From assembly GCA_015068245.1 (NCBI GenBank), contig SVKU01000005.1:14847-78846 (forward strand): a stretch of DNA of 64,000 bases. Direction: 5' to 3'. Below the pieces are notes generated by a model, which was not told where the DNA came from, searched no databases, and worked only from the letters and a program-made list of their open reading frames with translations. The stretch comes from Oscillospiraceae bacterium. GTDB taxonomy: Bacteria > Bacillota > Clostridia > Oscillospirales > Oscillospiraceae. This document shows, piece after piece, positions 33,628 through 62,282 of this stretch (the first letter of the stretch is position 1; each line of letters opens with the position of its first letter). The translations under genes and the position numbers were made by a program.

Positions 33628-33652
33628 GGAACGGTCAAGACCGTTCCCTACA
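33628..33652 (-). repeat. GTAG-headed hairpin repeat (REP-like singlet, C-type)
   Basis: Minus strand reads tGTAG-GGAACGGTC-TT-GACCGTTCC. The same unit occurs at 42901-42924 and as a doublet at 62143-62207. Confidence 0.8.
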
Positions 33653-33679
33653 ATACTGTTTGAGTTAACAGTTAACTGC

Positions 33680-34543
33680 TCACATGGTTTCCGCTATGAC
33701 AGCACGGTCAATGCCTCCGCTGTCACGCCCAATTCCAATAACGCCGATACCCTCGGCTCGCAGCATATCCAAAATCGGTTCAGCCTGGTCAATACCCATT
33801 TCAAATATCAGCTTTCCGCCGGTTTTCAGAGCCGGAAGCCAGTTTTTCAAAATAGCGCGGTAGAAATCCAACCCATCTTCACCGCCGTGAAGGGCTATAT
33901 TGGGCTCGAAATCTTTGACAGATCTGTCCAGCGTCTGCATATCCGCAGAGGTTATGTACGGCGGGTTGGACACTATTATATCAAACTTACCAAGGTAAGC
34001 CGGAGGCGGCTGCATAACATCCGCCTTAACGTGGATAGCTCTGTTGGACAGTCCCAGATCCGTTGCGTTCTTGTGGCATATAGCCAATGCTTCATCGGAA
34101 ATGTCTGCCATTACCACCCTTGCCGCAGGCACTTTTTTTGCCACCGCAAGACCGATACAACCACTGCCGCAGCACAGGTCCAGCACCTTTGGATCGTTAT
34201 CCGCCATATCATCAGCGGCTTTGATCGCCAGAGATGCAGCAATTTCGGTATCGTCTCTGGGAATAAGAACTCCGGGGCCGACAGTCAGGGTCATGCCCAT
34301 GAACTCCCACTGACCCAGAATGTATCCCAGAGGTTCGCCTGACACACGACGGGCGCACAGCTCCATGGCTTTATTTGCCACATCGGTAGGTGCGTAAATG
34401 TTATAGTCAGCGAGCAGTTGCTCCTTGCTTTTTCCCGAAGCTGCACATACCAGTTCCCTGGCTGTCATAGTCGGGTTACCGTCACCGGCAGTTATCAGCT
34501 GACGGCGAATGTCTATACACAGGTCGTTATACTTAACTGCCAT
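33680..34543 (-). CDS. prmC: peptide chain release factor N(5)-glutamine methyltransferase
   Basis: SAM motif VLDLCCGSGCIG and the catalytic NPPY (SNPPYI). Confidence 0.93.
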   Translation of the reverse strand: MAVKYNDLCIDIRRQLITAGDGNPTMTARELVCAASGKSKEQLLADYNIYAPTDVANKAMELCARRVSGEPLGYILGQWEFMGMTLTVGPGVLIPRDDTEIAASLAIKAADDMADNDPKVLDLCCGSGCIGLAVAKKVPAARVVMADISDEALAICHKNATDLGLSNRAIHVKADVMQPPPAYLGKFDIIVSNPPYITSADMQTLDRSVKDFEPNIALHGGEDGLDFYRAILKNWLPALKTGGKLIFEMGIDQAEPILDMLRAEGIGVIGIGRDSGGIDRAVIAETM

Positions 34544-42824: not shown

Positions 42825-42865
42825 ATTATATACCTCATTGGCAGTTAACAGTTAACAGTTATTGA

Positions 42866-42900: not shown

Positions 42901-42924
42901 GGAACGGTCAAGACCGTTCCCTAC
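42901..42924 (-). repeat. GTAG-headed hairpin repeat (REP-like singlet, C-type)
   Basis: Minus strand reads GTAG-GGAACGGTC-TT-GACCGTTCC, identical to the copy at 33628-33651. Confidence 0.8.
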
Positions 42925-42990
42925 GTTACAATAGGACAGAAAAGTGCAAAATTGATAGCCAACTGTTCACTGTTCATTGTTAACTGTTAA

Positions 42991-51606: not shown

Positions 51607-51678
51607 GTAGGGGGCGGCGACCACGACGCCCCGCAACAGCCGAAACAAAAACGGGCTGTCGAGGACGCCAGCCCCTAC
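51607..51678. repeat. inverted doublet of GTAG-headed GC hairpins (REPIN-like, G-type)
   Basis: GTAGGGGGCGGCGACCACGACGCCCCGC, an 18-nt spacer, then GGGCTGTCGAGGACGCCAGCCCCTAC. The two halves differ, but each keeps its own stem (ggggcg/cgcccc versus gggctg/cagccc). Confidence 0.7.
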
Positions 51679-54393: not shown

Positions 54394-54464
54394 GTAGGGC
54401 GGGGGCTTGCTCCCGCCGAGAAAACCCAATTGTCGAACACGGCGGGAGCAAGCCCCCGCCCTAC
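54394..54464. repeat. perfect inverted doublet of GTAG-headed hairpins (REPIN-like, B-type)
   Basis: GTAGGGCGGGGGCTTGCTCCCGCC (54394-54417), a 23-nt spacer, then the exact reverse complement (54441-54464). Confidence 0.85.
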
Positions 54465-62080: not shown

Positions 62081-62142
62081 GCAGTCAAACACGTGTCACC
62101 GTGGGCAGCTTCCATACAATTTATATTCAATCCCTTTGTTTT

Positions 62143-62207
62143 GTAGGGAACGGCCTTGACCGTTCCTCCTGCTGACAAAAATCGGAACGGTCAAGGCCGT
62201 TCCCTAC
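62143..62207. repeat. perfect inverted doublet of GTAG-headed hairpins (REPIN-like, C-type)
   Basis: GTAGGGAACGGCCTTGACCGTTCC (62143-62166), a 17-nt spacer, then the exact reverse complement (62184-62207). Confidence 0.85.
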
Positions 62208-62232
62208 GATATAGTTTTCAATCTCAAAAAGC

Positions 62233-62255
62233 GGCGGGAGAAGCCCCCGCCCTAC
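62233..62255 (-). repeat. GTAG-headed hairpin repeat (REP-like singlet, B-type)
   Basis: Minus strand reads GTAGGGCGGGGGCTTCTCCCGCC, one nucleotide shorter than the halves of the doublet at 54394-54464. Confidence 0.75.
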
Positions 62256-62282
62256 ACCTATTACTACTTCAGGAAACAAAAC

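Follow-up and report, generated by a model that had tools for sequence, protein, structure and literature searches.

Hairpins headed by the tetranucleotide GTAG, known as repetitive extragenic palindromic (REP) elements, and the transposases that handle them have been characterized almost wholly in the Proteobacteria, with surveys extending to the Cyanobacteria and Bacteroidetes. We describe here such elements in a stretch of 64,000 nucleotides (the window) that corresponds to C39:14847-78846 of the draft genome of a Clostridia-like member of the Bacillota (2.43 Mb, 48.9% GC, 43 contigs, 98% complete). The element in question is an inverted doublet of GTAG-headed hairpins at positions 62143-62207. 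Positions without a prefix are those of the window; contigs of the draft are cited as C1, C39 and so on, related genomes with the prefix G, and extracted loci with the prefix L.

GTAG-type REPs, and the bacterial interspersed mosaic elements (BIMEs) that they form, are known from Enterobacteria, Pseudomonas and Stenotrophomonas (PMC3733652; Ton-Hoang 2012, as quoted in PMC6006769). In these hosts, as in the genome studied here, GTAG stands at the foot of a GC-rich palindrome of 20-26 nt, several classes of which occur per genome in hundreds of extragenic copies that are enriched downstream of genes and are arranged as inverted pairs with fixed short linkers and as tandem mosaic arrays. The "group 3" REPs of Pseudomonas and Stenotrophomonas share with ours a short perfect stem and a 4-nt loop (PMC8266576). 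Our system differs in its host, in a head extended to YY-GTAGGG, and in having about 10 classes together with four transposase genes in 2.4 Mb. The enzyme, called TnpAREP or RAYT (REP-associated tyrosine transposase), binds folded single-stranded REPs strand-specifically through GTAG and the stem-loop, and it cuts and rejoins the strand beside the motif (PMC6006769, PMC8266576). GTAG is contacted in E. coli TnpAREP by W94, Q95, E/D100, H101 and R104 (PMC6006769).

Two further systems invite comparison. The REPINs of Pseudomonas fluorescens SBW25, as defined by Bertels and Rainey (PMC3116915), are over-represented inverted REP doublets that behave as a conserved unit, with decaying singlets; as here, one long hairpin forms from the inverted REPs and their short spacer, and the RAYTs are single-copy and class-specific. 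The IS200/IS605 insertion sequences (IS608, ISDra2) have the same HUH-Y1 fold and also recognize a sub-terminal single-stranded hairpin with the help of a 5' tetranucleotide guide. Unlike these, the RAYTs described below are single, diverged (at most 51% identity) and without duplicated left and right ends, and it is a 24-nt hairpin that has multiplied and not the gene.

Reports from hosts such as ours are sparse. According to Bertels (2017), Group 1 RAYTs occur in Clostridia and have few repeats associated with them; Quentin (2018; PMC6006769) identified no REPs for the matching subclass, 2.1, and described in-frame REPs within genes of subclass 2.4. Text searches showed no mention of Firmicutes or Clostridia in Di Nocera (2013; PMC3733652) and no REPs reported in hosts matching Firmicutes or Clostridi in PMC6006769, and a literature search combining RAYT with the names of gut Clostridia families returned only unrelated microbiome papers. 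For the RAYT group that is attributed to Clostridia, two large surveys list no REPs; here we find a multi-class REP/BIME population with four matched RAYTs. It is a genuine REP/BIME-RAYT system, a known kind of element in a lineage from which these REP surveys report none. Within it, the doublet very probably represents two inverted copies of one class (the C-type) of a multi-class REP family that forms BIME-like mosaics and is handled by RAYTs.

The doublet and the REP classes of the genome

The C-type unit, GTAGGGAACGGYCTTGACCGTTCC, was matched by pattern search at four places in the window, 33628-33651(-), 42901-42924(-), 62143-62166(+) and 62184-62207(-), compared with none expected from 100 dinucleotide-preserving shuffles. 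The first two are singlets of consensus sequence, and the last two are the halves of the doublet. An earlier reading of the window by a model that saw its letters only (the sequence-only reading) had located the doublet and the second singlet exactly and had made the first singlet one nucleotide too long, ending it at 33652. It had also described the halves as exact reverse complements of each other with a spacer of 17 nt, both carrying the same T-to-C change relative to the singlets, and our comparison agrees in each respect. The left half, at 62143..62166 on the plus strand, is a GTAG head with a hairpin in the rare GGCC variant (GGAACGG[C]CTTG), and the right half, at 62184..62207 on the minus strand, is its exact reverse complement. 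The spacer, TCCTGCTGACAAAAATC (62167..62183), is unrelated in sequence to that of the other convergent C-type doublet (C4:18516-18582). The C variant has no other instance in this genome.

Folded as single-stranded DNA, the consensus singlet has an 8-bp stem with a 4-nt loop (-8.3 kcal/mol) and the variant half a 7-bp stem with a 6-nt loop (-7.1 kcal/mol), with z near -4.2 for these 24-nt units, whose length lies within the 20-40 nt of REP palindromes. The entire doublet folds into a perfect 24-bp stem of -30 kcal/mol (z = -12.3), which the sequence-only reading had also called perfect.

We counted as REPs, across the draft, those GTAGG-headed hairpins whose sequence cluster had 3 copies or more, because a scan for perfect stems and a lax energy cut-off gave a high background for any 4-mer head. 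This census yielded about 276 GTAGG-headed GC hairpins in about 10 classes on at least 30 contigs. The largest are classes 0 and 1 (50 copies each), class 2, which is the second class of the sequence-only reading (44), and class 3, the C-type (43, of which 39 are identical); classes 4, 5, 6 and 7 have 26, 18, 18 and 15 copies. The exact C-type 24-mer occurs 40 times and its reversed control not at all. The genome-wide counts that had been suggested for the two units of the window are 43 for the C-type, including 4 same-class doublets and 12 isolated singlets from which any other REP is more than 150 nt away, and 44 for class 2.

In this genome a REP unit consists of a GTAG head, which two pyrimidines precede in 229 of the 276 copies, and a short GC-rich hairpin, almost perfect, with about 8 bp in the stem and 4 nt in the loop. 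Every class starts with GTAGG, and while the GTAGGG head is constant, the hairpin stems vary among the classes by compensatory changes. In a de novo scan for perfect hairpins (stem of at least 8 bp) GTAG was the most frequent 4-mer directly 5' of the stem, with 156 instances followed by AAAA with 72, and it stood on one side of the hairpin and never on both, as does the head of a REP. The assignment of these hairpins to GTAG-headed, REP-type elements in the sequence-only reading is accordingly upheld: GTAG persists when all copies are aligned. The copies are dispersed and mostly extragenic (270 of 286, about 94%, against a non-coding share of 14% and a called-gene share of 86%, the genes having been called with a crude, home-made codon-usage gene finder).

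RAYT genes and the REPs within them

Four genes for RAYT/TnpAREP-like HUH-Y1 proteins are present in the genome, all outside the window; no Y1 transposase was found on the contig of the window. RAYT-A (C19:11563-12120, plus strand) contains within its open reading frame (ORF) the REP GTAGGGCGGGGGCTTGCTCCCGCC and its complement, which belong to class 2. RAYT-B (C7:67401-67916, minus strand) contains a pair of GTAGGGGCGGATATCATCCGCCCG, class 7. RAYT-C (C32:32721-33197, plus strand), which lies between uvrB and uvrA, contains a pair of GTAGGGGCGACCTGCGGTCGCCCG and is preceded by one upstream copy, all of class 0. RAYT-D (C41:13370-13918, minus strand) has one internal copy of GTAGGGAACGCCGTCCCCGGCGTTCC and one upstream copy, which are class 5-like. 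The REPs in each ORF thus match one abundant dispersed class. The four proteins share 36-51% pairwise identity, and their low copy number and the lack of near-identical duplicates are unlike those of active insertion sequences. Weak tblastn matches of RAYT-C at C1:25067 and C23:1730, considered as a fifth RAYT of C-type, proved to be translated REP arrays and were rejected.

All four RAYTs score above the cut-off of Pfam Y1_Tnp (PF01797), and the top NCBIfam match of each is REP_Tyr_transpos (NF047646), to whose seed sequences they are distantly related. Their sole sequence match in the PDB is E. coli TnpAREP (4ER8), in an alignment that covers the HUH motif, the catalytic-tyrosine motif and, at equal spacing, WQKSFYDHIIR against WQPRFWEHAIR. 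The best Foldseek match of an AlphaFold RAYT model (pLDDT 81) is likewise 4ER8, with its REP hairpin (E = 1e-8, TM 0.66); ISDra2 and IS608 rank behind it, with IS200/IS605 folds at ranks 2-29. Among 36 RAYT homologues H78, H80 and Y139 are invariant, as are W118, Q119 and R128, and D124 is nearly so (motif WQxxxxDHxxR); the GTAG-contact residues of the E. coli enzyme are conserved in these proteins.

Several observations agree with the TnpAREP mechanism, namely that the catalytic and GTAG-contact residues are conserved, that YY precedes GTAG, and that the REP classes match the RAYTs. By analogy with the enzymes of E. coli, Stenotrophomonas and Marinomonas, the REP hairpin would fold on single-stranded DNA, the RAYT would bind it strand-specifically through GTAG and the stem-loop, and the strand would be cleaved and rejoined beside the motif. 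Single REP units would in this way spread and be reshuffled into intergenic DNA, preferably beside existing REPs at fixed distances. Each of the four RAYTs is tied to one REP class by the copies in its gene, and RAYT-C and RAYT-D by the copies just upstream as well. Catalysis and present-day mobility would follow from the same analogy.

The placement of REPs inside the transposase genes is not peculiar to this genome. We scanned RAYT homologues at 80 loci (L003-L082; 83 rows, about 12 of them without a scorable ORF), mostly from metagenome-assembled genomes (MAGs) of Clostridia, and 57 of the 83 rows have an inverted REP pair within the ORF, with heads outward, 174-219 bp apart and flanking the HUH motif. 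The two copies differ by 0-5 mismatches and are near-identical within a gene and unlike between genes, at least 10 different stems being represented. They encode the loop residues V37-P44 and G90-T97 of the RAYT model. The upstream copy is translated in two frames according to lineage, as VGANCVRP or RRGELCSP at a spacing of 189 or 188 nt, and the DNA of the 24-mer is unchanged; the constraint therefore acts on the DNA and not on the protein.

Described enzymes with similar traits are those of TnpAREP subclass 2.4 (Quentin 2018, PMC6006769; Group 4 RAYTs of Bertels 2017), which also have REPs in frame within the gene, in the variable loop that joins the HUH strand to helix alpha-C, and which share the lack of a long C-terminal extension and the conserved GTAG-contact residues. 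Our genes differ in that they typically have two copies, in the beta1-alphaA and beta3-alphaC loops, inverted and with outward heads 174-219 bp apart around the HUH motif.

The locus of RAYT-C in two congeneric genomes bears on what the internal pair may do. In G003 the RAYT-C orthologue upstream of uvrA (L086, on G003:C17) lacks about 185 bp corresponding to L002 1551-1736, which matches, to within a few nucleotides, the stretch from the outer end of one internal REP to that of the other; a 12-nt remnant, TATGACCACAGG, is left. The missing segment includes the HUH motif, and the orthologue is therefore inactivated. In G001 uvrB is followed after 19 nt by uvrA, and the RAYT is absent (L130, G001:C75:3650-3780); no RAYT match, C-type REP or GGGGCG-type REP was found anywhere in that genome. 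One could tentatively suppose that the internal pair is a functional part of the RAYTs of this clostridial clade, either as a master or template copy that couples the evolution of enzyme and substrate or as a self-limiting switch, the latter idea being suggested by the loss in G003 of a segment ending near the outer ends of the pair. The pairs offer in any case a direct handle on the matching of enzyme and substrate classes.

Distribution in related genomes

Across 31 related genomes, the presence of a RAYT is associated with 5 or more matches of the REP pattern GTAGGGGCG-N6-10-CGCCC (6/3 versus 3/19, Fisher p = 0.007). The C-type itself has a patchy distribution. The identical 24-mer occurs in 51 copies in G028 (L090, L114-L125), whose family within the order is another one, and in only 2 of 29 other relatives, with 1-3 copies each. 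In G028 one RAYT gene is flanked by four C-type REPs and contains a C-type variant within its ORF. This patchiness suggests horizontal spread of RAYT-REP pairs, as opposed to the strictly vertical picture of proteobacterial REPINs. G028 has about eight RAYT-like genes altogether, and many of its C-type copies are outward-headed pairs that enclose whole intergenic regions of unrelated content.

At the locus of the doublet, REP content differs between congeneric species. The doublet lies upstream of truA, in an intergenic region of 202 nt (62081..62282) that follows a membrane-protein gene and contains three REPs. In G001, with a flank identity of about 72%, the TGA of the membrane-protein gene is separated from the ATG of truA by 9 nt compared with the 202 nt here, and in G002, at 89% identity, the gap holds different hairpins. 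Elsewhere in G002 the rare C variant occurs as a singlet, and the orthologous site in our genome lacks it: C15:23293-23497 and G002:C286:11563 are shared up to ...ATATAGTAGG (GTAGG) and then diverge completely, into the variant REP in G002 and unrelated sequence here.

Arrays, doublets and competing explanations

Three quarters (75%) of the REPs have another REP within 150 nt, and their spacing is rigid, with 2-6 nt between tails, 25 nt between heads and 31 nt between REPs of the same direction. Three or four classes can be combined in tandem modules, such as the 14 REPs of C6:4801-5423 with a period of 189 bp and the mosaic array at C15:35319-35584 with a period of 81 bp. This layout of alternating inverted types with conserved linkers, repeated in tandem, is that of a BIME. 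A conserved GAAAAC linker joins about 17 of the C-type REPs to a REP of class 1, and most C-type partners are of that class. The C-type forms four same-class doublets, two convergent (62143-62207 and C4:18516-18582) and two divergent. Further mosaic arrays of 3-4 classes are found at C23:1-1200 and C1:22800-25419, the periods across all arrays being 189, 81 and about 240 bp. Several arrays stop at contig edges, so REP repeats probably break the assembly; in practice such elements interrupt MAG assemblies and also seed spurious small ORFs (peptides VGATCGRP and GRPQVAPT).

The reading that we favor, of C-type copies spread as part of a RAYT-handled REP family, accords with the evidence in the three respects in which the sequence-only reading had laid itself open: RAYT homologues exist in the genome, copies are polymorphic between species, and the GTAG head is conserved. 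Several points count against it. The four RAYTs fall below the curated cut-off of NF047646 (45-76 versus 80 bits). The Y1 transposase gene that had been expected beside the C-type units was found in kind, as the four RAYT-like genes, and not in place, since no C-type REP lies within or flanks any RAYT in this draft of 43 contigs and 98% completeness. The extragenic share depends on rough gene calls. A comparison of empty sites, also proposed beforehand, gave presence and absence between congeneric species, where at 72-89% identity insertion and deletion are not strictly separable, and no variation among ten public metagenome contigs carrying the locus (found through TruA), which are 100% identical over 3.2 kb. 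Finally, G010, a genome of the same family (88% complete), has 163 matches to the REP pattern, mostly GCGAGGCTTGCCTCGC, and no RAYT match at E <= 1e-5; its REPs may be an orphaned population, or the gene may have been missed in a fragmented MAG. The lack of a C-type RAYT in this assembly implies that the C-type is mobilized by another RAYT, was recently orphaned, or has its gene in unassembled sequence. RAYT-D, in whose own REP the GTAGGGAACG foot is also present, is the best candidate for cross-mobilization.

The sequence-only reading went further and took the doublet for a REPIN, the mobile form of such elements. On that account the pair and its spacer replicate together, the singlets are decayed remnants, and either gene conversion or selection for the long hairpin maintains the identity of the halves. 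The layout of inverted REPs and a spacer that fold into one long hairpin does hold for 62143-62207, with its perfect 24-bp stem and its variant common to both halves and otherwise missing from the genome, and the general clustering of REPs would also fit. Same-class inverted pairs with identical halves are slightly more numerous than random draws would give (13 versus 9.9, P = 0.04), and one class-1 divergent doublet occurs twice, spacer included (C11:15005 and C40:28663). This case is the sole exception to spacers that, within a class, are alike in length (23-28 nt in class 2, 16-18 nt in the C-type) and unrelated in sequence, as judged from two C-type and six class-2 doublets here and from eleven C-type doublets in G028, which surround unrelated sequences of roughly 60-210 nt. 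Nor are singlets less conserved than clustered copies: in the C-type 11 of 12 singlets and 28 of 31 clustered copies are perfect, and in class 2 16 of 17 and 25 of 27, in a comparison whose detection step itself demands near-consensus copies. In SBW25, by contrast, doublet and spacer are conserved and the singlets more diverged. Here mixed-class pairs predominate; between a C-type and a class-1 REP a long hairpin is impossible. From the unrelated spacers and the equally conserved singlets, the copied unit appears to be a single hairpin or a module of mixed classes and not the same-class doublet, and we regard a true REPIN as quite improbable. The related proposal that the halves evolve in concert does not hold generally: in five other doublets a private variant is confined to one half, 62143-62207 being the only one with such a variant in both, and the same C variant is a singlet in G002. 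For this doublet the likeliest origin is that a REP, once mutated, was duplicated locally in inverted orientation, or that a second copy was templated on the first; continuing concerted evolution is less probable. Since loop positions matter in the recognition of short perfect REPs (PMC8266576), the enlarged loops of its halves may make them poor substrates.

Slightly less doubtful than a REPIN, and still unlikely, is that the hairpins are structural or regulatory elements selected by the host, such as stabilizers of mRNA 3' ends, terminators, or sites for gyrase or nucleoid proteins, with the RAYTs as bystanders that have acquired repeats. Such roles have been ascribed to REPs (PMC6006769), and REPs are present in 14% of convergent intergenic regions compared with 5% of co-directional and 6% of divergent ones. 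The uniformity of the C-type, with 39 of 43 copies identical, could reflect selection, and G010 shows many REPs and no detected RAYT. Two REP halves have weak terminator-like tails on the minus strand, which is the most that a terminator scan returned; on the plus strand the doublet, which lies upstream of truA, lacks a T-run. Host function would leave unexplained the identical 24-mers at about 40 unrelated loci, the GTAG head, the one-to-one match of classes with the copies inside RAYT genes, and the co-occurrence of RAYTs and REPs. It is nevertheless compatible with spread by RAYTs, and the two are not mutually exclusive. Least probable of all, to our minds, is that the likeness to REPs is superficial and the repeats are those of a different nuclease or transposon system, either a miniature inverted-repeat transposable element with terminal inverted repeats or the hairpin repeats of a small GIY-YIG (Ssn-type) nuclease. 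The genome does contain several further families of hairpin repeats, and outward-headed doublets have the appearance of terminal inverted repeats. No internal sequence is conserved, however, and the pairs that were examined by eye showed no target-site duplication. The GTAG foot, and the match to copies within RAYT genes and next to them, are peculiar to the RAYT system. No family was matched in an Rfam search, whose only returns were generic miRNA models for long hairpins, far short of their gathering scores.

Returning to RAYT-handled REPs, the window holds several beyond the C-type. The class-2 pattern GTAGGGCGGGGG matches at 54394(+), 54453(-) and 62244(-). The first two matches form a convergent class-2 (B-type) doublet with exact halves and a 23-nt spacer (54394..54464), and the third belongs to a REP that adjoins the C-type doublet, GTAGGGCGGGGGCTTCTCCCGCC (62233..62255, minus strand), with a 1-nt deletion in the loop relative to the 24-nt consensus; its class is also the one found inside the ORF of RAYT-A. 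A convergent class-1 doublet, whose halves are different variants, lies at 51607..51678.

Other repeats accompany the REPs. A module of about 90 nt (…AGCCCCCCTTGTGTAAAGGGGGGTGATTTTTG.GACGCAAAAATCGGGGGGATTGT.AAC…) with two G6/C6 hairpins recurs beside REP arrays, at C1:25290-25380, C33:4278, C7:50436 and G002:C286:11600-11690 and in three copies on C23. Both C-type singlets of the window have arrays of the heptamers AGTTAAC / CAGTTAA beside them (33660-33680; 42842-42862 and 42963-42990), which constitute a separate repeat family.

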